DNA from: an uncultured delta proteobacterium
GTDB lineage: Bacteria; Desulfobacterota; Desulfuromonadia; Geobacterales; DSM-12255
Direction of reading: 5' to 3'
Length of the DNA: 64,000 nt
Assembly (NCBI GenBank): GCA_963787125.1
Contig: CAWBBV010000004.1
Location: forward strand, 96,001-160,000
Made by a program: the position numbers and the translations under genes. Shown in pieces: positions 20,152 to 33,564 of the stretch. Under the pieces are notes generated by a model that saw nothing but the letters and a program-made list of their open reading frames with translations, had not been told where the DNA came from and ran no database searches. Numbering within the stretch: position 1 is the stretch's first letter; each line of letters opens with the position of its first letter.

Positions 20152-21381
20152 ATGAAAATCCTCCACACCTCTGACTGGCACATCGGTCGGGCCCTTTACG
20201 GCCGCAAACGCTACGAGGAGTTCGAGCGCTTTCTCGACTGGCTGCTCGACTGCATTGCAGCCGAAGGGGTCGAAGCGCTGCTGATTGCCGGTGATGTTTT
20301 TGACAACAGCACCCCCAGTAACCGGGCGCTGGAACTTTATTACCGTTTTCTCTGCCGCTGCGCCGGGGCGGGGTGTCGCCACGTGGTGGTGACCGCGGGG
20401 AACCACGATTCACCCTCTCTCCTTAATGCTCCCCGCGAGCTGCTGCGGTTTCTCCATGTCCATGTGGTCGGCTGCATGACCGCCCCGACGGATGAGCTGG
20501 TGGTGCTGAATTCGGCTGCCGGCAGACCGGAGCTGCTTGTCTGTGCCGTCCCCTATCTGCGTGATCGCGATATCCGCCGGGCCGAGGCGGGCGAAACCTG
20601 TGAGGACAAAGGGCGCAAGTTGGTGGATGGTATTCGCGAGCACTACCTCCAGGTAGGCGCCGCAGCCCTTGCCAGACGCACCGAACTGGGGGGCAGTCTT
20701 CCCATTATCGCCATGGGGCACCTGTTTGCCAGCGGTGGTCAGACTGTTGAAGGAGACGGAGTGCGGGAGCTGTACGTCGGTTCCCTCGGCCAGGTTCGTG
20801 CCGATCTCTTCCCTGACTGCTTCGACTACCTCGCCCTCGGCCATCTGCACCTCGGCCAACTTGTGGGTGGCTCCGATGTCCGCCGCTATTCAGGGGCCCC
20901 TCTGGCGATGAGTTTCGGTGAAGCCGGCCAGCGCAAGACCGTGATCGCGGTGACGCTGGATGTTAACGGCATAACTGCCGCGGAAATAGCTGTGCCATGC
21001 TTTCAGACGCTGGCCACGGTGCGCGGCGACTGGCGGCAGATCAGCGAGCGAATTGCCGCGCTGAAAAAAGAGACTGTTCCGGTCTGGCTGGAGGTTATCT
21101 ATGAAGGGCTTGAGGTCATCGGCGACCTGCAAGAGCGTTTGCGGAACCTGATCGACGGCTCGCGCCTGGAAATTCTGCGCACCAAGAACATGCGTCTTGT
21201 GGCACAGACCCTGAGCCGGATGGCGACGGAAGAGACCCTCGATGATCTCAGCGTCGATGATGTCTTTGCCCGCTGTCTCAGCGCCCATGAAGTGCCGCCG
21301 GAGCAGCAGGCCGAGCTGGTGGCGACCTTTCGCGAGACTGTTGCTGCGCTCCATGAAGACACCTCATCGGGGGGGTTATGA
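20152..21381 (+). CDS. sbcD: SbcCD nuclease subunit
   Basis: HTSDWHIG, AGDVFD, GNHD and ALGHLH metallophosphoesterase motifs. Confidence 0.95.
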   Translation: MKILHTSDWHIGRALYGRKRYEEFERFLDWLLDCIAAEGVEALLIAGDVFDNSTPSNRALELYYRFLCRCAGAGCRHVVVTAGNHDSPSLLNAPRELLRFLHVHVVGCMTAPTDELVVLNSAAGRPELLVCAVPYLRDRDIRRAEAGETCEDKGRKLVDGIREHYLQVGAAALARRTELGGSLPIIAMGHLFASGGQTVEGDGVRELYVGSLGQVRADLFPDCFDYLALGHLHLGQLVGGSDVRRYSGAPLAMSFGEAGQRKTVIAVTLDVNGITAAEIAVPCFQTLATVRGDWRQISERIAALKKETVPVWLEVIYEGLEVIGDLQERLRNLIDGSRLEILRTKNMRLVAQTLSRMATEETLDDLSVDDVFARCLSAHEVPPEQQAELVATFRETVAALHEDTSSGGL

Positions 21382-24300
21382 AAGTTCTCCGTCTCTCCTT
21401 CAAGAACCTCAATTCCCTGGCCGGGATCTGGGAAATAGATTTCAGGCACCCCGACTATGTTTCCAGCGGTATCTTTGCCATCACCGGACCGACCGGTGCC
21501 GGCAAGACCACCATTCTCGATGCCATCTGTCTGGCTCTCTACGGCCAGACCCCCCGTTTGGGGAGGATCACCCAGAGTGACAACGAAATCATGGCGCGGC
21601 AGAGCGGCGAATGTTTTGCTGAGATTGAATTTGAAACGGCCAGGGGGCGCTTTCGCTGCCACTGGAGCCAGCACCGCTCGCGCAAATTGGCAGACGGCCA
21701 GCTGCAGGCACCGAAACATGAAATTGCCGTGGCTGAAAGCGGCCTGATCCTCGAATCAAAGCTGCGCGCCGTGGCCGACAAGGTTGAGGAAGTCACCGGC
21801 ATGGACTTCGATCGCTTCACCCGCTCCATGCTCCTGGCGCAAGGGGGCTTTGCCGCCTTTTTGCAGGCCCGTCCCGATGAGCGGGCACCGATTCTGGAAC
21901 AGATCACCGGTACCGCCATCTACAGCCGGATTTCCATTAAGGTTCATGAGCGGCGCAGCGAAGAGAACAGGTTACTCGGGGAGTTACGCGCCGAGCTTGA
22001 CGGCATCCAGCTGCTTGCTCCCGGGGAACTGGAGGGCCTCTTTGCTGAGCAGTCTGATCTGCAAAAGGCTGAAAGCGCCCTGAGCAGTGCTGCCTTGATA
22101 ATTCGCGCAGCCCAGTCCTGGCGTGAACGGATTGCGAACCTTGAGAATGAACTGCTGCAGCTGCAGCAGGAGAGGCTTGTCTTTGAAGAGCGCAAGGAGG
22201 GGGCTGCCGGGGAACTGGCGCAGCTGGCGCTGGCCGGCCGTGCCCTGAAACTTGGCGGTGACCATGCCCATATTCTTTTGCTCCGCTCCCAGCAGGCGGG
22301 TGAGCAGGAGGAACTGACCCGTGCCGCCGAACACCGCCCCCAACTGCAACTCGGCTGGCAGGCGGCTTTTGATGGCTGCCAGTTGGCAGAGGCCGGACTG
22401 AAGGCCGCCGGGGAAGAGCAGGCAGCTGAGGCAGAACTGATTCGCCGCACGCGCGAGCTTGATGTCAGGCTTAAGGAAGCTACGACCCAGCTGAACGGCT
22501 TAACGGCAGGGATCGAAAGAGACGGTCAGCAGAACAACGGCTTTCGCACGGCAATAACCGGCTGCGAGCAGCGTCTTCAGAGTAGCGGAGAAGAGTTGCA
22601 AACGGTTGTGGCTTTTCTGGAGCGGCATCAGGATGATGCCGGTCTGGTAGCGGCGCTCACCGGGATCGAGCAACAGCTGCAGGCGCTTACGGCCCAGACT
22701 AAACAGTGCAGTGAAGTCAGTGTCAAACTGGACCGACAGGCCGGTCTGAATGAGGCTGCCGGGTTGACCTGCGGCAAGGCAGATGGAGCCTGGCAGGCGG
22801 TTCAGCAGGCTGTCGCCGATGCTGAAGAGCGACTGTCAGTATTATGTGCAGAGGGTGAAGCTGCATTGCAAGGACGTGATCTGTCTATATGGCGCGCTGA
22901 AGCGGAAACGTTGGTAAGCAGGCAGGAACGGTTGCGGACGGTGCAGGAAGCAGTGGCGCGACTCGATGGTGATAGCGCAACGCTGGCAGCGGTCAAAGAG
23001 CGGCAGGAAGAGCTTGAGCGCAAGCGGCAAACGCTTGTCCGGCAGCAACTCTCCCTGAGCAGCGAAACTGAGCTGCGTGAGCAGGTCGCTGCTCAGTTGC
23101 AGGCAAATGTTCTGCTACTAAACCGGGTGCGCAGTCTGGAAGAGGATCGTCGCCAGCTTCAAGACGGAGTGCCGTGCCCTTTGTGCGGTGCCAGTGAGCA
23201 CCCGTATGCCGCCGGTAATCTACCACAGGCGGATACTGCCCAAAAGGAGCTGGAGCTGGCTGCCGCCGCGGTCAGGCTGGTGCGGGAGCAGCTTGCCGGA
23301 ACCAGACAGGAACTGGTCGCTGTTGACAAGGATCTGGCTCATGCCGGCCAGGAAGTGAACGAACTTCAGGCGCGGCAGCAGCGGGACAGCGCCTTCTGCG
23401 CTGCCGGTTTTGTTGAGCTGGGGGTTAGCATCGCCGCAACTGCCTGGGCGGAAGCCATTCGCAGAGAGTCTGACGCTTGCCAGTCGGCTCTGCTCATGCT
23501 GCGGAGTTTTATTCAGAGTGGCGAACAGCACGCAGAGGCAGAGCGGAGCGCCCAACTGAAACTTCACAAACTAAAAGAAGAACTGGCAGAGCATGATAAG
23601 ACCCGGCTAACCGCCCGCCTGGGGGCAGAAGCGGCGCTGGCGGAGCTGCATCGTCTGGAGGTGGAGGCGGTAACTCTTCACGCAGAATTTGAGCGGCTGC
23701 TGGCCAACGTCGCCCAAGTGGTGGCCGAATTCGGCTATACGGAGATCACTGCGGAGGGTGCTGCGGGGCTCTTGGCAGCCCTGACTGCCCGGCGCGACGC
23801 CTACGGGCAACAGCTGCAGACCAGAGAGCGTCTGGAAAAAGTGCGGGCAGAATTAATCGCTGATAAGGCACAACAGCAGGCGCTACTGGCGGCAGCTGAA
23901 AAGATGCTCAATGAGAAGGAACAGGAGCTGCGCGACATAAGCTCCGGCCGTGCTGCCCTGGTTGAGCTGCGACTGGAACTTTACGGCGAGCGCAGTCCGG
24001 ATCTGGAGGAAAAACGGCTGACTGATGCATTACGCGTTGCCTCTGAACGGCGTGAAGAGGCACTCAAGGAGCTGAACCGCTTTCAGGCTGAGCTGGATGC
24101 CCTGACCGGGCAGATTGGACGGCTTAACAGCGCTATTGATCAGAGAGGCAGGCAGTTGTCTGGACTGGAAGGTGCTTTTCGTGTGCGTCTCAGTGAGAAC
24201 GGTTTTGTCGATGAGGCAGCTTATCTGCAGGCGTGCCTGCCCCAAGAGCGCTTCGAGGCGCTGGCACAAATGGCTGACAGCCTGCGGCAGACGGAAACCG

Positions 24301-25052
24301 CCCTGCAGACCCGGCAGCAGGACCGCCGTGACTCTTTGGCGGCTGAACTGGCCAGGAATCTGACCGACAAACCGCTTGACCTGCTCCGGGTTGAGAACGC
24401 CGCTGTCAGCGGGGAGCTGAGCGAGCTGCACAAGGGGCTGGGTGCTCTTGAGCAGAGACTGCAGCAGCACGCGCAGCAGCAGGAGCGCCATCAGAGCCGG
24501 CTTCTGGCCATTGAACGGCAAAGACGGGAATGTGAGCGCTGGGAGAAACTGCACAGCCTGATAGGTTCCAGCGACGGCAAGAAGTTCCGTAATTTTGCCC
24601 AGGGGCTGACCTTCGAGCTGATGGTGGCCCACGCCAACCGTCAGCTGCAGAAGATGAGCGACCGTTATATCCTGATTCGGGACAGTTCTGAACCGCTGGA
24701 GCTGAACGTCATCGACAACTATCAGGCCGGGGAGATCCGCTCCACCAAGAACCTGTCCGGGGGCGAGAGTTTCATCGCCAGCCTTGCCCTTTCTCTCGGC
24801 CTCTCCAGCATGGCGAGCCGCAACGTCCGGGTAGATTCCCTCTTCCTCGACGAAGGCTTCGGCACCCTTGATGAAGACGCTCTGGAAACCGCCCTGGAAA
24901 CCCTTTCCGGGCTGCAGCAGGACGGCAAGCTGATCGGCATCATCTCCCATGTCCCGGCCCTCAAGGAGCGAATCGGCACCCAGATTCAGGTGGAGGCCGG
25001 CAGCGGTGGCCGCAGCCGGTTGAGCGGGCCGGGTTGCCGGGCGGTGGATTGA
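21378..25052 (+). CDS. sbcC: SbcCD SMC-type ATPase subunit
   Basis: Walker A GPTGAGKT, coiled coils, CPLCG zinc hook, LSGGE and FLDEGFGTLD motifs. Confidence 0.95.
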   Translation: MKVLRLSFKNLNSLAGIWEIDFRHPDYVSSGIFAITGPTGAGKTTILDAICLALYGQTPRLGRITQSDNEIMARQSGECFAEIEFETARGRFRCHWSQHRSRKLADGQLQAPKHEIAVAESGLILESKLRAVADKVEEVTGMDFDRFTRSMLLAQGGFAAFLQARPDERAPILEQITGTAIYSRISIKVHERRSEENRLLGELRAELDGIQLLAPGELEGLFAEQSDLQKAESALSSAALIIRAAQSWRERIANLENELLQLQQERLVFEERKEGAAGELAQLALAGRALKLGGDHAHILLLRSQQAGEQEELTRAAEHRPQLQLGWQAAFDGCQLAEAGLKAAGEEQAAEAELIRRTRELDVRLKEATTQLNGLTAGIERDGQQNNGFRTAITGCEQRLQSSGEELQTVVAFLERHQDDAGLVAALTGIEQQLQALTAQTKQCSEVSVKLDRQAGLNEAAGLTCGKADGAWQAVQQAVADAEERLSVLCAEGEAALQGRDLSIWRAEAETLVSRQERLRTVQEAVARLDGDSATLAAVKERQEELERKRQTLVRQQLSLSSETELREQVAAQLQANVLLLNRVRSLEEDRRQLQDGVPCPLCGASEHPYAAGNLPQADTAQKELELAAAAVRLVREQLAGTRQELVAVDKDLAHAGQEVNELQARQQRDSAFCAAGFVELGVSIAATAWAEAIRRESDACQSALLMLRSFIQSGEQHAEAERSAQLKLHKLKEELAEHDKTRLTARLGAEAALAELHRLEVEAVTLHAEFERLLANVAQVVAEFGYTEITAEGAAGLLAALTARRDAYGQQLQTRERLEKVRAELIADKAQQQALLAAAEKMLNEKEQELRDISSGRAALVELRLELYGERSPDLEEKRLTDALRVASERREEALKELNRFQAELDALTGQIGRLNSAIDQRGRQLSGLEGAFRVRLSENGFVDEAAYLQACLPQERFEALAQMADSLRQTETALQTRQQDRRDSLAAELARNLTDKPLDLLRVENAAVSGELSELHKGLGALEQRLQQHAQQQERHQSRLLAIERQRRECERWEKLHSLIGSSDGKKFRNFAQGLTFELMVAHANRQLQKMSDRYILIRDSSEPLELNVIDNYQAGEIRSTKNLSGGESFIASLALSLGLSSMASRNVRVDSLFLDEGFGTLDEDALETALETLSGLQQDGKLIGIISHVPALKERIGTQIQVEAGSGGRSRLSGPGCRAVD

Positions 25053-25197
25053 TGGACAACGCTCGCTGGTGGCCTGGCTGTTGGCGCGCCCTAGAGTAGA
25101 GGGGAGTTAGATGGCGTCAGATTGGGAGTTTCAGGAAGATTCCACAGAATTCGGAAATGCTTAAACCTTGAACTGTTTTTAATTGGCGGAATGTGAT

Positions 25198-25236
25198 AAA
25201 AAGCACCCTGGCAGATAATGTCAGGGTGCTTTTTTT
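25198..25236. terminator. Intrinsic terminator hairpin
   Basis: AAAAAGCACCCTGGCA...TGTCAGGGTGCTTTTTTT; near-copy of the 20014 hairpin. Confidence 0.75.
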
Positions 25237-25242
25237 GTTGAG

Positions 25243-26816
25243 GTGTCAATGATGACAAGGAAACAGATATTCATCAGTTCCGTGCAGAAAGAACTGGCTG
25301 ACGACCGTCGGGCGCTGAAAGAGTACGTGCATGGTGATCCACTGCTCCGCCGCTTTTTCGAGGTGTTTCTCTTCGAGGATCTACCTGCTTCCGACCGGTG
25401 TGCTGATGAAGTCTACTTGTCTGAGGTGGAGCAAAGCGCCATCTATGTTGGCCTTTTCGGCAATGACTATGGCTACGTTAACGCTGATGGGATTTCGCCC
25501 ACTGAACGGGAATTCGACCATGCCACAACCAGTGGCAAGGAACGGCTCATCTTAGTCAAAGGGAATGATGACTCTTCCCGTCATCCCGGAATGCAGGCTC
25601 TGATCCGCAAGGCGGGTGAACAGCTCATCCGCCGCCGTTTCAATGCTATTACTGAATTGATAACCAGTCTTTATGCCGCACTGGTGCAGTATCTGGTGGC
25701 TAATGAGTTGATCCGTAGCGGACCATTTGATGCCGCGCCTTGCCTGAAGGCTACCATTAAAGATCTTGACGAAGAAAAAATTCGGTCATTTCTTCGGAGT
25801 GCCCGTCGGGCGCGGGGCTTTGCTCTTGATGAAGATACAACTCCGGCCTCAGTTCTGGAGCATTTGAACCTGCTTGATCATGGTCGCCCTTCTCAAGCAG
25901 CAGTCCTGCTTTTCGGAGTACAGCCTCAGCGCTACCTGCTTTCATCCGAAGTGAAGTGTATGCATTTTCACGCCACACACGTTCATAAACCGATCCCCTC
26001 CTACCATATCTTCAAGGGACACTCTTCGAACTGGTTGATCAGGCGGTGGATTTCGTGATGTCCAAGATCGATCTCTGGGTGGGAACACGGAAAGACGGTC
26101 CACAGGCGCCGGTGGCCTATGAAATTCCCCGTGAGGTCGTGTCTGAGGCAATTGTCAACGCCGTTGCGCATCGAGATTACACCAGTACCGGCAGCGTCCA
26201 GGTGATGCTGTTTTCAGATCGGCTTGAGATCTGGAGCCCAGGCGAATTGCGACCCCCCATGACTCTGGCCAAATTGATCAGGCCGCACCCCTCCTTGCCG
26301 GTTAATCCGCTCATTGCAGAACCACTTTACCTGAGCAAATATATCGAAAAGGCAGGATCCGGCACCCTCGACATGCTGGAGCTCTGCCGATCAACCGGAC
26401 TGCATCCGCCGGAATTCCGCGTGGATGTTGGTTGTTTCATCGTGACCATCCGTCGCAAGCAGCGCGCGGGTACCGCGAAAAGCATGCAGCCAGAGTCACA
26501 ATCAGAGTCGATGACCCAAGTCATAGGGCTAGAGTCGGGGCTAGAGTCGGGGCTAGAGTCGGGGCTAGAGTCGGGGCTAGAGTCGGAAATATCACAAAAG
26601 GCTTTGGTGGCTCTCACTGCCGGAGCGATGGGGCGTTCGGAGATCGCTGAAGCAGTTGGACATGAGCGAATTTCCGGTGCTATCAATCGTGCAATTAAGG
26701 AACTTTTGCAAAAGAGGCTAATCGCATACACTATTCCCGACAAGCCCAACAGCCGTTTGCAAAAATACCAGCTCACTACAGAAGGCAGGGCTTGGCTGGC
26801 AGGACGACAAAAATGA
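25243..26816 (+). pseudogene. DUF4062 + ATP-binding (RecG_C/HATPase-like) + HTH protein, split by a 1-bp frameshift near 26016
   Basis: IFISSVQKE N-terminus; EAIVNAVAHRDY and EKAGSG in the second frame; adding one G gives continuous FKGTLFELVDQAVDFVMSKI. Confidence 0.7.
26526..26585 (+). repeat. 12-bp tandem repeat x5 (GGGCTAGAGTCG, encoding GLES)
   Basis: Five exact tandem units inside the coding region. Confidence 0.9.
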
Positions 26817-27139
26817 AATACCCTCCGCATTGTTGTCAACTGTGACTATTATGAATAATCATTTGTCGAGGGCTGTCTTCCATGACAGGTCTAAAATGTC
26901 CCGAAAGCGCAGGAATCCGAACTGGTGAAACTGCGCAGTGCCGTATACCAGAAAATGAAGCTGTTTAAGGGGTGAACCAAACGGGATGTTTATTAAAAGG
27001 GAGACAAAGGGGACATTCTATAGTCCACCTGTCAACTGAAAATATCGCTCTTTTAAAATCAAATAGTTAGTCATCCTTGCGGATTGCGGGCGCAGCTATC
27101 CCTTGCTTTGGTGAAATGGCGAGTCTCTCACTTACGGCA

Positions 27140-27320
27140 AACCTTGAGCTTAATCGTTACTTGTATCCGACATCCCCCGCCCGCATCGGGAACTGGGTTG
27201 TCTATCATTCCTTATCAAAGCTCCAAGATTTTAGTGAGATGCCCGGTATTGTCCCTCCCGAGGTCATTGCTGCCTCTACGTTGTTAAACGGGCTTATCTC
27301 GCCTACTGCCTGCCTCTAGG
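27140..27320 (-). ncRNA. Putative IS110 bridge RNA
   Basis: Two large internal loops; one carries CAACGT and GGGAC matching the target, the other GAATG and TAAC matching the donor junction. Confidence 0.65.
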
Positions 27321-27324
27321 GTGG

Positions 27325-28614
27325 TTATCCCGTGAAGCAGGAAGGATTAAATGGTTCTCTCTTCTTCATAAGTGTCCAGGCCACAACCAAAAGCTTTGCC
27401 GCCAGCTTGACTTTCATCTTCAGGTTGATGCCGCGCTCAAGCTCGCGACCTCTGATTAATTTGCTAAAGTAAGTCCTGATAACCGGATTCGCTGTGGAGG
27501 CAACCATTGCCGCTTGCACCAGGGCGTAACGCAGTGCCGCTTTCCCTTGCTTGGAGATCACCGGCTTGGCACTGTTGCTGTTCTTGCCGCTCCGCTCGGC
27601 ACTTAAGTCCAGTCCGGCCAGACGCACTACCTGTCCCTGATTCTGAAACCGGACAGGATTGCCGATGGCGGCAAGAACCATGGCCGAAATAATCGGACCG
27701 AATCCGGGAATAGACAGAAGGCACTCATATTCAGAAAACTGCTTTGCTGCTTTTGCCATCAACTGCTCATTACCCTTGACCGTTTCACGAATCGACTTCA
27801 GCTGGCAGACGAGACTCTTGGCCTCCCATCTGGCGGCGTCATGAACAAGGCAACCAACGGACTCTCCGGCAGTCTCCCAAAGCTCGCGCAGACGTCTTTC
27901 CTGTTCTATCCTGATCTTGCGTTTTGTAATGAGCTTCAGGAAGGCGTCGAACTCCATCCCGGCAATTTCCCTCGGGTCCAGACAATGTTCGGCAATTGAA
28001 AGAATCAGGTCGTCCGGTTGCCCTGCTTTGATGTAGAGCTGGTCCAATTCGGGAAAGAACTGGGCAAGAACATTATTTCTCAGCCGCATTTTCAGTGCGT
28101 GCTCTTCCTTCTTCAGCCTGATCCTGAAACCAATCAGGCTGCGTAATTCACGCAGGTTCTCTTGCGGTAGCTCATAGAAGAGGCAGCGGCTCTGGCCCAC
28201 CAGATCGGCAACATTGGCGGCATCCTTCTTGTCGTTCTTGTCCCAACGGCCATCCAGTAGCGCTCGATTCTTTGCCACGGCCACATTGGATACATAGACA
28301 ACCTGCTCCTTCTGTCGCAGCAGATATTCGGCTAAGGGCTTGTGGTAGGAGGCTGTAGGCTCAAGTCCATACACAACCTCGACCAGGCCATGTTGATTCT
28401 TGAGATCTCCGGCTAAACTGCGCAGATTCTCGAATCCTTGTAAGCTGTTGTCAAAGATCATGTTCTTGCGTAGCGTTCTGCCATTGGGTGTTCCAAAGAA
28501 AGCATGGTGCTTGTTCTTGGCAACATCGATGCCGACTAGCAGATGTTTTTCCGAGCCCCTGACTGATGCCTTCATCTGTCTGAACAACGCCAGACTATCC
28601 GTTACAGCTTCCAT
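27325..28614 (-). CDS. IS110-family DEDD recombinase/transposase
   Basis: VGIDVAK, LEPTASY, KNDKKDA, SIPGFGP and RSG motifs. Confidence 0.92.
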   Translation of the reverse strand: MEAVTDSLALFRQMKASVRGSEKHLLVGIDVAKNKHHAFFGTPNGRTLRKNMIFDNSLQGFENLRSLAGDLKNQHGLVEVVYGLEPTASYHKPLAEYLLRQKEQVVYVSNVAVAKNRALLDGRWDKNDKKDAANVADLVGQSRCLFYELPQENLRELRSLIGFRIRLKKEEHALKMRLRNNVLAQFFPELDQLYIKAGQPDDLILSIAEHCLDPREIAGMEFDAFLKLITKRKIRIEQERRLRELWETAGESVGCLVHDAARWEAKSLVCQLKSIRETVKGNEQLMAKAAKQFSEYECLLSIPGFGPIISAMVLAAIGNPVRFQNQGQVVRLAGLDLSAERSGKNSNSAKPVISKQGKAALRYALVQAAMVASTANPVIRTYFSKLIRGRELERGINLKMKVKLAAKLLVVAWTLMKKREPFNPSCFTG

Positions 28615-28759
28615 TCTGTCCTCCTGGTATGTTGAATAAATGGCTATTCAATAACAGGCTGACAATAGAACTACAAGACTGGTAACTTATTATTTTATCT
28701 ATAATTTCCGGGGAAAAATCTGTAGCTCTCAGTCATATATAACGTTGCTTGCTAATCAA

Positions 28760-29749
28760 CTAACCACCTACTTTCAGCAACTTTATTCGCAGTTCCTGAT
28801 CATCTTTCAGCAGTTCTCCACCCCGTCGGACCGCCATTGATGCGCCTGCCGAGCCAATTACCACAATTTTTCCGGCCTCAGTCGCCGTATAGTCGTACTC
28901 ACGCACAGCACAGTAGCAGAAGATGGCTTTGGCTCGTGCGATGGCCCGTTCCTTGCCGGGACTCTGCAGTTTTTCTAAAGGTGCTCCGGTTACGGCACTG
29001 ACTTTATCGAGAAGAGCACTCAATGTAAGTCGCGGTTTATGCAGCTCACCCTGTCTGGCTCCACCGGTCAGTAGTTCGACAAATTCGCCACTGCCGAGTA
29101 TGCGCTCGTCAAAGGCTGCTATTTCTCCGCTCTCCATACAATCAGGCTGGCTGCGCTTCAGTCCGCCTCCAATCAGATCGTTGCGCTGTCCGGCAGCAAC
29201 ACCGTCGGCAATGAACTGCTGATAGGCATGCATTGAGCGGGCTCTTTCCAGCCCAAATCGTGCCAGTATCTCTTCTGTTTCCTGACCTTCCATGGTCCGC
29301 TTACCAAGTAAAACTGCATGGCCGCTCCAGAGGTAGTGCTCCAGTCCGTCCAGATCGGCAACCATTCCGGCCCGTAACGGATTCAGGTGGATATAACGGA
29401 CAAGTTCAAGCAGGTACGGTTCTTCCTCGCAGAGGATGGATTTGTAGCGGTTCTGGAACAGATGACCGCAGCGGTTGTATTTCCGGTTGAAATAGACAGC
29501 ATAGCCGGTGAGCAGGCGACGCATGGTCTCTGCAAGGGAAACAGTGGTCGGCATAAGCAGCAGATGAAAATGGTTCGACATGAGCGCCCAGGCATAACAC
29601 TTTGTGGCGCTTTTAGAGAGCAGGGCAGACAGGCTTGCCACAAAGCGTTCCTTGTCAGCGTCATCAGCGAAAATATCGCGGCGTTCAATCCCGCGAACGA
29701 TGACGTGCTGCAGGACGTGTGGTATGTCAAGGCGTGGTTGGCGTGGCAT
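28760..29749 (-). CDS. REP-associated tyrosine transposase-like (Y1 HUH) protein with a C-terminal HTH
   Basis: MPRQPR, HVIVRG, MSNHFHLLL, GHLFQNRYKS and YIHLNP motifs. Confidence 0.88.
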   Translation of the reverse strand: MPRQPRLDIPHVLQHVIVRGIERRDIFADDADKERFVASLSALLSKSATKCYAWALMSNHFHLLLMPTTVSLAETMRRLLTGYAVYFNRKYNRCGHLFQNRYKSILCEEEPYLLELVRYIHLNPLRAGMVADLDGLEHYLWSGHAVLLGKRTMEGQETEEILARFGLERARSMHAYQQFIADGVAAGQRNDLIGGGLKRSQPDCMESGEIAAFDERILGSGEFVELLTGGARQGELHKPRLTLSALLDKVSAVTGAPLEKLQSPGKERAIARAKAIFCYCAVREYDYTATEAGKIVVIGSAGASMAVRRGGELLKDDQELRIKLLKVGG

Positions 29750-29809
29750 GAGAGGAGAATAGCACTGGCGTGGATTGGTGGCAATAGTTAATTAGTGAGC
29801 AACGTCCCC

Positions 29810-30091
29810 CCAAGCTTCGCACTTCAACTTTAGATTGCGGCGTTGAAAAGATCTGTTCCGGAACGCTGTGCTCCAATGCCGACGAAGTCATACCACTTGA
29901 GAGCATATACTGTTTGACAGTCTCACTGTTGCCATCTTTCGCCTTCACCACTTGCATCAGATAATCTGCGTCCATGTTCAGTCCGCCGGAACGGATATAA
30001 CGGGGTATTCCCCAAAGCATCATCACCTTGAGCTTGGTTGCAAAGATAGTTTCTGACGGAACAGTGATAGCGTTGACGTTCAAGGTATTTG
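29810..30091 (-). pseudogene. Internal fragment of a larger gene (resembles a segment of large transglutaminase-like/secreted proteins)
   Basis: Open frame with no proper start, cut by the attC core on one side and the RAYT repeat on the other; the SALEHSVPEQ resemblance is from recollection only. Confidence 0.4.
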
Positions 30092-30149
30092 CAGCAACGG
30101 CTGAGAGCACACCGGCGGCGGGTTTTTGCCGACCGGTGCTGCGCTTAGT
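30092..30149 (-). other. attC (terminal), interrupted by intron 1; remainder at 32049-32053
   Basis: CAGCAAC...GCACACCGG/CCGGTGCTGC...TAGT|TGGGC. Confidence 0.85.
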
Positions 30150-32048
30150 GTACGCCCGTCATGGGCGTGAACTTATGGGGTGCAAGTCCCCTGTACGGTG
30201 AATCCAACACTGTCGCGAGACAGCGTAAACCAAGTACTAGCCGAAGGCAAGGGCGTCTCCGCGAGGAGGGGGCTGGAGGAAGCCGGAGCGCAAAGCTATG
30301 AGCCGACGAACAGAAACAGCATACAAGGCCATCATCCGGGCAAGTCAGCACAACATGACGAAGTCCCTCGGGTTCAGGAGAAATGGTAAATGCTGCGGTT
30401 GTGTAGCCACAGTTCACGTTCTTATCCGGGGAGATCTGCTCCGCATGCCATTGATTCCTGATGGCGCGGCATCTGGTAACAGCTGCCGTGATGGAGCAGA
30501 AGTCAGCAGAAGCCATAGTAGGCGAAGGACGTTGCCGCAAGCGATCCGGCAACTGGAAACAAGCCCGGGAGAGTCCGGGAAGCCTTACCCCGCCGAAGGG
30601 CCGAACGATAGAAAAGGGGAGGAGCCCCAATGAGCTTTCATGACATATCGAACCCGTCCGGGGGAATGCCCATGGAGCGCGTCATTGACCAGCCAACCCC
30701 GGAGCAGCACCTACTGGAGCGGATATTATCCAGTGTGAACATGGAGCAAGCGTGGAAACGGGTCAAAGCCAATAAGGGCGCACCCGGCGTCGATGGCATC
30801 ACCATCGAACAATTCCCCGACCATACCCGTTCTCACTGGAACACTATTCGCGAATCGCTAATGACAGGCAGTTACCAACCTTTGCCGGTAAAGCGGGTAG
30901 AGATTCCCAAAGCAACGGGTGGAACCCGTCCGCTGGGGATACCCACTGTACTTGACCGGCTGATCCAACAGTCCATTGCCCAAGTGTTGACACCGATCTT
31001 CGATCCGGACTTCTCCGCATCGAGCTTCGGTTTCCGTCCCCGTCGGTCAGCAAAAGATGCTGTCCGAAAGGTGCGGGAGTACATCCAGCAGGGATACCGG
31101 ATTGCCGTGGATATTGACCTTGCCAAGTTCTTCGACACGGTCAACCATGATCTGCTCATGCACCTTGTGAGCAAGAAAGTTCACGACAAGCGGGTACTAG
31201 CCCTGATCGGCAAGTACTTACGGGCAGGTGTAGAGGTAAAAGGGCGTCTTGAAAAGACCAGACTGGGTGTCCCCCAGGGTGGCCCACTCTCGCCGCTTCT
31301 AGCCAACATCCTGCTCGACACACTGGACAAAGAACTTGAGAAACGCGGTCACAAATTCGTCCGCTATGCAGACGACTTCGTCATCCTCGTCAAAAGCCAG
31401 CGCGCCGGCGACCGGGTAATGGAAGGAATGAAAACCTTCCTGACCAGCAAACTCAAGCTCACAGTCAATGAAACCAAGAGTGCGGTAGCAAGAACATCCC
31501 GCATCGACTTCCTTGGTTTTATCTTCAGTGGCACCCGCATCATCTGGTCTGACAAGGCATACAAGGAATTCAGACGCCGCGTCAAACAGTATACCGGAAG
31601 AAGCTGGCGGGTCTCCATGAAGTACCGGATGTACAAACTGGCTCAATATCTCCGTGGCTGGATGGGGTACTTCGGCATCTCGGAGTATTACCGGGAAATC
31701 CCGGAAATAGACGGCTGGATACGGCGCAGGATACGGCTCTGCTACTGGAAGCAGTGGCGCTGGTGTCGTACCAAGATTCGGGAGCTGCTCAAGTTGGGGA
31801 CGGAGAAATTCACCGCCATCCGAGCGGGCCTGAATAGAAGTGGCCCGTGGGCCATGTCCCGAAGACTTGCAGCCCATACCGGTTTGACCAACAAATGTCT
31901 GAAGGATCAAGGTTTATTATCTGTCAAAGAACTGTGGGTGAAGCTTCACTACCCGGCTACGGCCCGGTAATTCTATCGAACCGCCGGATGCGGACCCGCA
32001 TGTCCGGTGGTGTGGGGGCTGGGGGAGAAAAACCCCCGGCTACCCGAT
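30150..32048 (+). mobile_element. Group IIC-attC intron, copy 1
   Basis: Starts GTACG, ends CCCGAT, domain V with a CGC triad, EBS1 ACAA at 30350; inserted at TAGT|T in the attC bottom strand. Confidence 0.92.
30630..31970 (+). CDS. ltrA: Group II intron reverse transcriptase/maturase (no endonuclease domain)
   Basis: NKGAPGVDG, RPLGIP, PQGGPLSP and YADD motifs; 446 aa. Confidence 0.95.
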   Translation: MSFHDISNPSGGMPMERVIDQPTPEQHLLERILSSVNMEQAWKRVKANKGAPGVDGITIEQFPDHTRSHWNTIRESLMTGSYQPLPVKRVEIPKATGGTRPLGIPTVLDRLIQQSIAQVLTPIFDPDFSASSFGFRPRRSAKDAVRKVREYIQQGYRIAVDIDLAKFFDTVNHDLLMHLVSKKVHDKRVLALIGKYLRAGVEVKGRLEKTRLGVPQGGPLSPLLANILLDTLDKELEKRGHKFVRYADDFVILVKSQRAGDRVMEGMKTFLTSKLKLTVNETKSAVARTSRIDFLGFIFSGTRIIWSDKAYKEFRRRVKQYTGRSWRVSMKYRMYKLAQYLRGWMGYFGISEYYREIPEIDGWIRRRIRLCYWKQWRWCRTKIRELLKLGTEKFTAIRAGLNRSGPWAMSRRLAAHTGLTNKCLKDQGLLSVKELWVKLHYPATAR

Positions 32049-32073
32049 TGGGCATCGCTGTTTTTTTCCGAAC

Positions 32074-32412
32074 TTACTTGTCGTGTTGCTTACGGGTCTC
32101 CATAACAAGCCATAATGTAGCCAATCCAAAAAGAACCATTCCGCCGTAAAGCGGATAATACATCCAGCTCATTTGGCTTTTCAGAGCGACATAGCCTTCA
32201 TGGAAGTCAGTCGGTTTTATTCTTCCCGGCACATCTGGTCGTACCATTGCCAATACAACTGATGATAAGAGCATAGAGGTCGAGCCAAGAAACATCAGTA
32301 TTGCTGCTTTTGTCCTGTACCGCGTGCAACAGACCATACTTCCGGGCAAAATAACACCTTGGATGGCGGCAACAGCTATGAGCAGCATAAATTCGAGAAA
32401 TGACATTTTCAT
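32074..32412 (-). CDS. Cassette membrane protein, hypothetical
   Basis: Three hydrophobic segments; fills the cassette. Confidence 0.65.
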   Translation of the reverse strand: MKMSFLEFMLLIAVAAIQGVILPGSMVCCTRYRTKAAILMFLGSTSMLLSSVVLAMVRPDVPGRIKPTDFHEGYVALKSQMSWMYYPLYGGMVLFGLATLWLVMETRKQHDK

Positions 32413-32463
32413 TATTGGTTCTTTCTTATCTGCTCAACTGGGTCTTGGGCTCGCTTATTTGGT

Positions 32464-32805
32464 CTATGATTGCCTGAGGAGACGAATAACTCCACCTATA
32501 ATGATCGCGACTCCGATGAAATATTTGAAGTTAATCCACCCTGCAAATGACTCAGGGTCGCGCTGTTTGCGGACACTTCCCCACACACTCATTCTGTTGC
32601 TTATGCCTCTTCGTGATTCTATGTTCGCACTCAATATTATGAAAATTCCTATAACTGGCAAAAACGATTTATCGATGAGATCCCTTGCTGAATCATTCAT
32701 TGTGAACCTTGCGATTCCAAGACATATGAGAACAAGAACGGAGAGACCATAAATTATCTCAGCGAATTCTGTTTTGCGGTTTGAATTTTCGTTGTTTTTT
32801 CTCAT
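32464..32805 (-). CDS. Cassette membrane protein, hypothetical
   Basis: Three hydrophobic segments; starts just after the attC R' core. Confidence 0.65.
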   Translation of the reverse strand: MRKNNENSNRKTEFAEIIYGLSVLVLICLGIARFTMNDSARDLIDKSFLPVIGIFIILSANIESRRGISNRMSVWGSVRKQRDPESFAGWINFKYFIGVAIIIGGVIRLLRQS

Positions 32806-32819
32806 AGCCTTTATCTCGT

Positions 32820-32884
32820 GCTCAACGGGGTGCCCGGTTGACCCGCCCGGTTTTTAGGGGCGGTGTCCAACCGGCTGGTTGGGA
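32820..32884 (-). other. attC site
   Basis: GCTCAAC...GGTTGAC/GTCCAACC...GTTGGGA. Confidence 0.88.
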
Positions 32885-32964
32885 CTTCGTCTTTTTAGCC
32901 TTCTGTCTTTTTACTTTTGTCTCGTGTCAAGGGTTGCTCCCTCGGGATCTTTTGGATGGCTAAC

Positions 32965-33564
32965 CTAGCGCGTTGGGGAACAGATGATCCGAAAAACCTT
33001 TCTCATAATTGGCAAAAAATACCGAAAGGCATGAACAACAATCATGCTGATTGCGAGCAATCCAAAAACATGAACAGTTTTATAATTGCTGTGTAAGGTA
33101 AGAATCAGCAAGCCCTTGGAAAGCCCTACCCAGAACCCATACCAAATAAAGGTGCCTAGAAAATGCGCTCGCCAGAAAATTCGGAAGTTGCCACCCAAAA
33201 AACCTGCCAGCATTGGAATCTGAGAGCGAATGCCTGGTGTCAGTCTTCCGAAGAGAATAGCACGATAGTACTCGCCTTCTGATATTGAAGGCCAGTGTTC
33301 TATTTTAATTACGCGCGACGCCAATTTTTGAAAACAGTGTATCGACTTAAGAGAGCGGCCAAATAGGAACATAAGAAACCCTGCAGTCACTGACCCAACA
33401 ACCATAACGAGAAACAAGGTGGCAATTGTCAATTTGGCTTCAGCCTGCGCTGCTTTGAAAGACAATAACTCACTCGGGGGCAGCCCTATAACGCCATTTG
33501 AAAAAGACAGGAGAAATGCCCAAGTTTGGGTAATGTCACTGGATAGCAAATATTCAAACATCAT
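32965..33564 (-). CDS. DedA/VTT-family membrane protein
   Basis: GLPPSE, FLFGR and GRLTPGIRSQIPMLAG motifs. Confidence 0.75.
   Translation of the reverse strand: MMFEYLLSSDITQTWAFLLSFSNGVIGLPPSELLSFKAAQAEAKLTIATLFLVMVVGSVTAGFLMFLFGRSLKSIHCFQKLASRVIKIEHWPSISEGEYYRAILFGRLTPGIRSQIPMLAGFLGGNFRIFWRAHFLGTFIWYGFWVGLSKGLLILTLHSNYKTVHVFGLLAISMIVVHAFRYFLPIMRKVFRIICSPTR

Follow-up and report, generated by a model that had tools for sequence, protein, structure and literature searches.

How does an insertion sequence (IS) that always lands in the same short sequence, and always in the same orientation, find its site, and could an RNA encoded within the element do the reading? The question is raised by a locus in a stretch of 64,000 nucleotides from an uncultured delta proteobacterium (GenBank assembly GCA_963787125.1, contig CAWBBV010000004.1, positions 96,001 to 160,000 of the forward strand; this whole stretch is called the window, and its own numbering is used below), where an IS110-type element lies beside a gene resembling those of REP-associated tyrosine transposases (RAYT; REP, repetitive extragenic palindromic). 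An earlier note on this DNA had proposed a bridge RNA, readable downstream of the transposase gene and programmed against the terminal repeat of the RAYT unit. The analysis that followed supports an active IS110-family element moving by bridge-RNA-guided recombination, with a probability that we put at roughly 88%; the boundaries of the element and its target, a conserved RNA structure, two left guides that change together with their DNA partners, and intact catalytic residues carry this reading.

One site, one orientation and a GT core

The element and the parts of its target lie at the following positions.

27015..28743, minus strand: IS element, 1,729 bp, with one copy of the GT core (28743-28742, IS strand) counted in
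27014-27013, IS strand: second GT of the element junction, reckoned with the flank and not with the 1,729-bp element
27009..27014, plus strand: right half of the split target, reading GGGGAC (GT-CCCC on the IS strand)
28744..28748, plus strand: left half of the split target, reading GTTGC (GCAAC on the IS strand)
29789..29799, plus strand: intact, unoccupied copy of the target, GCAACGTCCCC, at the far end of the RAYT-like unit

On the plus strand, the insertion splits GGGGAC|GTTGC (27009-27014 and 28744-28748) with AC at both junctions, as the earlier note had read it, and these AC dinucleotides (27013-14 and 28742-43) are the GT core of the IS strand. Does the same hold for other copies? A search of the genome with 27015-28743 gives 11 matches, which are eight full-length copies and three fragments. 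The full-length copies differ from that of the window at 0-5 bases, none of them within the RNA core described below, and all eight sit in the same site and in the same orientation, with flanks (A/G)CAAC-GT-[IS]-GT-CCCC (the left flank of two copies being shortened by contig ends); read on the transposase strand, they follow (A/G)CAAC-GT-[TATATATGACTG ... CTATAGAAT]-GT-CCCC. The survey of other genomic copies that the note had proposed therefore returns the same flanks in eight of eight cases, and no copy with an unrelated target. Unoccupied sites read CAACGTCCCC with a single GT (the target is also written AACAACGTCCC / AACAACGTCCCC), whereas occupied sites have a GT on each side of the IS. 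Because intact sites carry one GT, and given the flanks of the copies, the element is delimited as 27015-28743 and its core as GT; the span of 27009..28762 given earlier needs correction, as it takes in the target halves beyond the element proper. Insertion specific for site and orientation, at a common core dinucleotide and without ordinary target duplication in all eight copies, is the behaviour expected of the IS110 family, and the element is a real, recently active or expanded IS110-type insertion sequence.

The genome has 18 intact CAACGTCCCC sites, where base composition would predict 8.5. Judged by eye, about 11 of the 18 stand in the repeat context TTAGTTGAYTAATCAACAACGTCCCC, and palindromic doublets are formed by some sites. 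The intact repeat that had been noticed near 29800 is the copy at 29789-29799 listed above.

Traces of other insertions are also found. A solo right IS terminus of 29 nt, 100% identical, lies outside the window at G000:C4:195388-195416, against GGGGGAC and beside a REPIN-like doublet, and an 81-nt right-end fragment of a diverged relative (83% identity) at G000:C24:65763-65843; both are probably deletion remnants of earlier insertions. Part of the transposase gene is also matched, at 89% identity, by a 231-bp fragment at G000:C14:70349-70579, the relic in this genome of a second lineage of the same IS that has diverged.

A DEDD recombinase with intact catalytic residues

27325..28614, minus strand: DEDD transposase/recombinase gene, 429 amino acids (open reading frame, Pfam and NCBIfam)

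The product combines an N-terminal DEDD RuvC-like domain with a C-terminal Transposase_20 domain, as IS110 transposases do (PF01548, 97.2 bits; PF02371, 73.2 bits), and reaches 180.7 bits with the NCBIfam model NF033542, 'IS110 family RNA-guided transposase', whose cut-off is 140; the family assignment made in the earlier note is thereby borne out. Alignment to the IS621 recombinase (E 1.9e-17) shows similarity confined to two stretches, in which D30, E85, D128, D131 and S342-G343 correspond to D11, E60, D102, D105 and S241-G242 of IS621. In IS621, D11, E60, D102, D105 and S241 are named as catalytic residues (PMC11208158). Among 12 relatives, D30, E85, D128, S342 and G343 are invariant and D131 is conserved in at least 90%.

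A three-way junction RNA downstream of the gene

27118..27303, minus strand: bridge RNA core, 186 nt, from alignment A2, RNAalifold and covariation

The right non-coding end of the element is 310 nt long (27324-27015), against about 127 nt for the left one, and the sequence 3' of the stop codon is still conserved in relatives whose protein identity is as low as 48%. Relatives were taken from two sources: 27 loci from genomes, mostly metagenome-assembled genomes (MAGs) of Geobacter-like or other anaerobes with 48-93% protein identity, plus three at 29%, and 80 metagenome loci, which are the best 80 of at least 585 confirmed relatives (595 pattern matches). Alignment A2 holds the 55 distinct sequences with recognisable anchors among 108 (107 loci and the window copy); L014, L024, L034-L038 and other loci lacking the anchor motifs were left out.

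The RNA core folds into a three-way junction, in which a closing helix GGCGAG/CUCGCC carries two arms. Arm A consists of GCCCG/CGGGC, an internal loop and a GAGG/CCUC hairpin; arm B of UCUCACU/AGUGAGA, a 12-pair helix, an internal loop and a distal helix. RNAalifold returns 43 pairs on A2, 26 of them with compensatory changes; four in-loop pairs (25:53, 99:156, 102:153 and 103:152) with zero double changes never covaried and were dropped, and two pairs were added to the closing helix, which gives a curated set of 41. In this set, the share of paired cells is 96.3%; shuffles give 88.0 +/- 0.3%, and sliding the partner by 1-3 columns brings it to 33-49%. Double changes occur in 26 of 41 pairs, against 15.2 +/- 1.7 in shuffles; on each of five measures, 0 of 500 shuffles reached the observed covariation. 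A covariance model built from A2 (R1) finds exactly the eight IS copies in the genome, with zero orphan copies, and has matches in three of 40 related genomes, a patchy spread such as is expected for a mobile element.

The guide RNA that had been placed downstream of the gene is thus predicted at 27303-27118, within a structure backed by covariation in 55 sequences, and the covariation across homologues that the earlier note had called for is found both in the helices (26 of 41 pairs with compensatory changes) and, as described below, in the two left guides, which track their DNA partners. The stem that it had drawn around CAACGT and GGGAC stands in part. Its GCCCG/CGGGC portion (minus strand, 27293-27289/27245-27241) is upheld by covariation; its outer GAGAT/ATCTC portion (27300-27296/27240-27236) is not. 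Three of the four GAGAU/AUCUC pairs tested never vary, their bases belong to two other helices, the closing one and that of arm B, and the fourth pair is broken in L028 and L029, just where the competing helix of arm B (columns 70-77/183-189) has compensatory changes. The outer stem could nevertheless form as a switch alternative to the main fold.

Directly 5' of the RNA, a hairpin CCUGCUUC ... GAAGCAGG (GAGGCAGG in the window; 27304-27345, minus strand) spans the stop codon of the transposase gene. It is kept in relatives of at least about 70% identity and absent in distant ones, and may belong to the RNA as a 5' stem, or else act as a signal for processing or coupling.

The target loop follows the left flank

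27278..27285, minus strand: putative left target guide AACAACGU (target loop, 5' side), equal to the top strand of the left target and core
27251..27255, minus strand: putative right target guide GGGAC (target loop, 3' side), complement of GT-CCC on the top strand

The internal loop of arm A has UUUAACAACGUA on its 5' side and GGGAGGGACAAUAC on its 3' side. The motifs CAACGT (minus strand, 27283-27278) and GGGAC, which the earlier note had matched to the two halves of the target, are found where it placed them; AACAACGU as a whole equals the left target plus core in six of the eight copies, the other two, that of the window among them, having AGCAAC.

If the loop is a guide, should it not change when the flank changes? 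In relatives, its 5' side varies (AACAAC, AAGAAC, AUGGAC, AAGAGC, ACCAAC and others) and follows the left flank: L026 and L042 agree at 10 of 10 positions, and the correspondence is also seen in L064 with ACGGACGT and L032 with AAGAGCGT. The match was scored as identity over the seven variable positions upstream of the constant CGT, in 47 of the 55 loci (L040 and the loci without a recognisable left IS end being omitted), and compared with permuted pairings of guide and flank. For all 47 loci with a recognisable left IS end, the score is 222 against 158.2 +/- 7.6 permuted; with one locus per distinct guide (n = 33), it is 150 against 102.4 +/- 6.6; and for the 41 loci with a single left-end candidate, 193 against 137.6 +/- 7.1 (six loci with two candidates were settled by hand in the 47-locus test and dropped from the 41-locus test). 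None of 100,000 permutations reached the observed value in any of the three tests, and the excess is located at positions -8 to -3. Over 10 nt, the 41 loci match at 10 positions in two cases, 9 in 11, 8 in 12, 7 in eight, 6 in five and 5 in three, so that 25 of the 41 match at 8 or more. The putative left target guide therefore covaries with the left flank.

The right side of the loop behaves otherwise. In the 43 loci where a pattern blind to the flank located the right IS end, the right flank after the GT is, read by eye, CCC in 39 and TCC in two, the remaining two being mis-hits of the pattern, and the sequence GGGACAA is invariant in 55 of 55 sequences. Its pairing with the target, which appears probable, is consequently argued from the match itself and not from covariation.

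The donor loop and the ends of the element

27206..27211, minus strand: putative left donor guide GGAAUG (donor loop, 5' side), matching the right IS end AGAAT plus the core G
27156..27159, minus strand: putative right donor guide UAAC (donor loop, 3' side), complementary to the GT-TA of the left IS end
28615..28741, minus strand: left non-coding end, opening with TATATA (28741-28736), the would-be -10 half of a promoter
27015..27035, minus strand: right IS terminus, with TTGACA (27035-27030) 15 nt from the end, the would-be -35 half

A second loop with GAATG and TAAC, partially matching the junction of a circularized element, had also been proposed, and both motifs are present on the minus strand (27210-27206 and 27159-27156). 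The first of them is solid: in 42 of 44 loci, the variable base of the putative left donor guide is the one called for by the right IS end, and these 42 fall into the classes GGAAU/AGAAT (22 loci, one of which, L028, was read by hand), GGGAU-type/AGGAT (13), GGAUU/GGATT (6) and GGUAU/AGTAT (1). This guide thus covaries with the right IS end. The second is thin, L028 being the sole covarying case, and pairing of UAAC with the left IS end is suggested by its complementarity. Judged from the sequences, both loops would then be complementary to both strands of their respective partners, as expected of an IS110 bridge RNA.

Joining of the two ends would create a promoter, TTGACA-17 nt-TATATA, whose spacer includes the GT core and which reads into the transposase gene and then the RNA. 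Relatives retain both halves, TTGAC(A/G) with its distance of 15 nt to the right end and the GT-TATAT that opens the left end, and a junction promoter has been described for IS621, ISEc11 and ISPpu10 (PMC11187229; PMC12288879); the element would rebuild a promoter at a circle junction in the same way. A few distant relatives (L028, L029) have TATAAT-like boxes immediately 5' of the RNA, which is not the general case. The RNA is probably co-transcribed with the transposase gene and then processed.

The target is the tip of a REP-like repeat

28760..29749, minus strand: RAYT-like Y1 (HUH) transposase gene (PF01797, Y1_Tnp, E 2.4e-12); the IS sits in its 3'-side terminal repeat

What kind of sequence does the element inhabit? 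The gene next to it encodes a protein with a Y1/HUH domain and the HFHLLL motif, and scores 58.5 bits with the NCBIfam model REP_Tyr_transpos, below its cut-off of 80, for which reason it is called RAYT-like. Its paralogues lie on contigs C3, C23 and C16 (48-49% identity) and, more distant, on C1. The RAYT-like genes of C4, C23 and C16 lie between GGGGACGT... and ...CAACGTCCCC; at C3 the contig end cuts the 5' flank, so that the repeat is visible on the 3' side alone, and the C1 paralogue has another repeat. The same repeat ends occur elsewhere as inverted doublets, for instance beside the IS copies on C1 and C12. Inverted copies flanking RAYT-like genes, together with dispersed singlets and doublets, characterize a REP-type repeat, and these flanking repeats and doublets indicate that the IS lands in the outer tip of a RAYT-like/REPIN-like terminal repeat.

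The relatives agree with this placement. A RAYT-like open reading frame is present in 13 of the 107 related loci overall; where at least 450 nt of flank is available, 12 of 58 loci have it on the outer side of the left IS end and 0 of 48 on that of the right, the one-sided arrangement that a fixed insertion orientation predicts. The claim that the target is a RAYT terminal repeat is accordingly sustained by the four RAYT-like paralogues and by the 12 of 58 relatives, with the reservation that the gene is only RAYT-like.

An upstream REPIN doublet is not a constant companion of the insertion: a clear inverted partner (at least 10 of 12 positions) is found in only 7 of 39 loci with at least 100 nt of flank. 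In the metagenome locus L044, about 60 nt upstream of the IS, the REPIN-like partner arm ends in ...TATATAAC|GTAGTTGATT, which suggests that a further copy of the IS, with its left end here, has entered the opposite arm.

How the element may move, and what else could explain the locus

The following course of events would account for these observations. The transposase mRNA would run on into the 3' end holding the 186-nt two-loop RNA. The target loop would pair with both strands of AACAAC-GT-CCC, AACAACGU with the bottom and GGGAC with the top strand, and the donor loop with the joined IS ends of an excised circle, where the right end would be matched by GGAAUG and the left by UAAC; the circle intermediate is itself postulated. 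By homology to IS621, the DEDD/Ser recombinase would then swap strands at the GT core, and insertion in a single orientation would follow in the outer tip of a REP-like repeat, at RAYT-like genes or REPIN-like doublets. Joining of the ends would meanwhile set up the junction promoter, which would drive the transposase gene and the RNA. The natural pair of guide and target proposed in the earlier note is thus favoured by loops that lie inside a covariation-backed structure, by their IS621-like geometry and by a left guide that tracks the flank.

Several observations weigh against this account. Folded as a single sequence, the 310-nt end has a minimum free energy no lower than that of shuffled sequence (z = -0.08, 45 of 100 shuffles being as stable), so that the evidence for structure is covariation and not energy, and an Rfam scan of 25000-33000 returned nothing inside the IS at E <= 1. 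No stand-alone sigma-70-like promoter was found just upstream of 27303. The right target guide never varies, and L027 and L033 have GT-TCC as right flank yet still GGGAC as guide; these two loci, which come from one MAG, have a deviant right flank and are N-terminally truncated matches, are also the ones discordant in the donor test. The left flank matches poorly, at two of seven variable positions, in L028, L076, L088 and L110. The donor guides are short (5 + 4 nt), the left one reaching only the core G, and UAAC is invariant except in L028, which has GCAAC with the left IS end GT-TG, a near-invariance that leaves its covariation thin. Finally, metagenome contigs of a multi-copy IS are possibly chimeric, and the related loci are not independent of each other.

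Could the 3' structure be a regulatory or stabilising 3' untranslated region (UTR), or a passenger small RNA, with the protein itself reading the REP tip? ISPpu9 offers a precedent in its downstream small RNA Ssr9, which is dispensable and unneeded for transposition (PMC12288879), and neither the right half of the target nor the guide proposed for it varies, as would also be expected of a motif read by a protein. Such a model predicts, however, neither a loop identical to the left flank nor a loop that changes with it, nor a second loop tracking the right IS end in 42 of 44 loci, and it leaves aside that the loop layout copies that of IS621; we regard it as very improbable. Even harder to credit is that the identity of loop and target is a relic at the DNA level, a captured piece of REP or a product of gene conversion, with no RNA guiding. 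The IS does live in REP-like repeats and leaves remnants there, such as the solo 29-nt right end by a REPIN, but the two matches are no contiguous copy of the target: AACAACGU and GGGAC stand on the two facing sides of a hairpin and read different strands, the same split recurs in relatives with other left halves, and the surrounding helices are maintained by compensatory changes.

A rival of another kind accepts the guide RNA and takes the element for an ordinary member of the IS1111 group with a seekRNA in its right non-coding end, instead of an IS110-type element with a relocated RNA. That group has been defined by subterminal inverted repeats of 7-17 bp, transposases of 330-350 amino acids, a downstream non-coding region and a match to the top strand placed 5' (PMC11208160; PMC11187229). 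The long non-coding end downstream (310 nt against about 127 nt) fits, as do a C-terminal GLDLSAERSG resembling GL-P----SG and a short imperfect terminal inverted repeat (TTATATA/TTCTATA, 6/7), which is the best inverted match at the ends. The remaining characters depart from the definition. The transposase has 429 amino acids; no exact inverted match of at least 7 is found within 60 nt of the ends, hence no subterminal repeat of 7-17 bp; and the bottom-strand match comes first, as in ISEc21 and IS621, whereas the IS1111 members tested have the opposite order (PMC11187229). Named plasmid-borne relatives (E <= 1e-5, 23-32% identity) are moreover of the ISRel25, ISBth13 and ISEc20 types, with no IS4321/IS5075-type among the 85 of 907 records listed. 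Membership of the IS1111 group is therefore unlikely, and the bridge-RNA-guided, IS110-type reading is retained in what follows.

Likeness to known systems

The closest parallel is with IS621 and ISCro4, bridge recombinases of the IS110 group whose structures have been solved (Durrant 2024, PMC11208160; Hiraizumi 2024, PMC11208158), which share with the present element a DEDD RuvC domain and a Tnp domain with a catalytic Ser (five residues aligned), REP sequences as insertion sites, a circle junction that rebuilds a sigma-70-type promoter, and two internal loops, the target loop coming first, with its 5' side facing the bottom and its 3' side the top strand, core included. In IS621, the 5' side pairs with 8-9 nt of the bottom strand and the 3' side with 4-7 nt of the top strand, the core being in both (PMC11208160). 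Unlike in the IS621 and ISCro4 elements as described there, where the RNA lies in the left IS end, it lies here downstream of the gene, and a helix shared by both loop arms makes the structure a three-way junction; the core dinucleotide is GT in place of CT, the donor guides are shorter, and the transposase is about 100 amino acids longer than that of IS621 (429 against 326).

A guide RNA at the 3' end is not new in itself, being the rule for the IS1111 group and also described for some IS110-type elements (PMC11208160; PMC11187229). ISEc11, ISPa11 and ISKpn4 (Siddiquee 2024, PMC11187229), which are IS1111 seekRNA elements, have their guide RNA in the long non-coding region downstream of tnp, likely co-transcribed from a junction promoter as is proposed here, and ISPa11 also targets REP sequences; in the account given there, they have 330-350 amino acids, repeats of 7-17 bp and the top-strand match 5', in contrast to the 429 amino acids, the repeat not found and the reversed order of the present element. 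ISPpu9 and ISPpu10 of Pseudomonas putida (PMC12288879) resemble it as multi-copy IS110-family elements that occupy REP/REPIN sequences at a single position and in a single orientation, using a dinucleotide core and circular intermediates (postulated here), and differ in hosts, in REP families, and in a bridge RNA situated upstream, in the 5' UTR, the downstream small RNA of ISPpu9 being the dispensable one discussed above.

Which subgroup does the element then belong to? IS110 elements in the strict sense have at most short imperfect repeats and a transposase of 315-455 amino acids, as is the case here, together with an upstream guide RNA, whereas R1 matches the right non-coding end only. An IS110-type transposase with a downstream long non-coding region is the arrangement of the 'green' group in Fig. 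1b of Siddiquee 2024 (PMC11187229), a group remarked on there without further study, which the element resembles, and the placement that we reason from these characters is an IS110-type enzyme with a 3' RNA. A near relative of the transposase figures in Durrant 2024 (Supplementary Table 1, sheet 2) without an ISfinder name, and no ISfinder-named member of the clade was found among the relatives and tables compared.

It is tempting to go further and see here a distinct third architecture of bridge recombinases, with a long enzyme and guide order of IS110 type, a 3' RNA and a three-way junction, in which only the left target guide is 'programmed' and the right one is frozen at GGGAC, the clade being a dedicated hyperparasite of REP/REPIN-RAYT systems with tips ACGTCCC(C). 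This is a tentative proposal, which we would sooner doubt than adopt.

Significance

Bridge and seek RNAs, 3'-encoded RNAs and REP targeting have all been published, and the element is a well-supported new example and not a new principle. Its less common traits, namely IS110-type logic with a 3' RNA, the three-way junction, the frozen right target guide and a clade recurring beside RAYT-like genes, are worth recording. One genome provides a natural set of guides and targets, in which eight perfect sites are occupied and at least 10 are free; differing guides that track their flanks are added by dozens of relatives. The clade consists of uncharacterised, large IS110 recombinases from Geobacter-like and other anaerobes, and the bridge-recombinase field would gain from it a family of orthologues with readable target and donor loops, which may include a candidate programmable recombinase, as well as an example of IS110-type guide logic joined to a 3'-encoded RNA. 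It also illustrates how one selfish element, the IS, can be specialised on the repeats of another, the RAYT/REPIN system, a principle already in print.

Neighbouring genes and elements

Beyond the RAYT-like unit, a group II intron extends over 30150-32050 of the window (plus strand), with Rfam matches to D1-D4-3 (122 bits), D1-D4-1 (59 bits) and domain V-VI (49 bits), all outside the IS, and a reverse-transcriptase/maturase open reading frame at 30630-31970 (RVT_1, GIIM). The IS, the RAYT-like unit and the intron thus bring three kinds of mobile element together within 5 kb.

On the other side, 25243-26816 (plus strand) holds two overlapping open reading frames, one of 271 amino acids with DUF4062 and one of 256 amino acids with HATPase_c_4 and Fic-like_C, which look like one gene split by a frameshift; the latter frame contains the peptide repeat GLES, four times, from a 12-nt tandem repeat near 26500-26560. 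Further away, at 21378-25052 (plus strand), an open reading frame of 1,224 amino acids with a Walker-A motif at its start and long coiled-coil-like stretches looks, by eye, SbcC/SMC-like.

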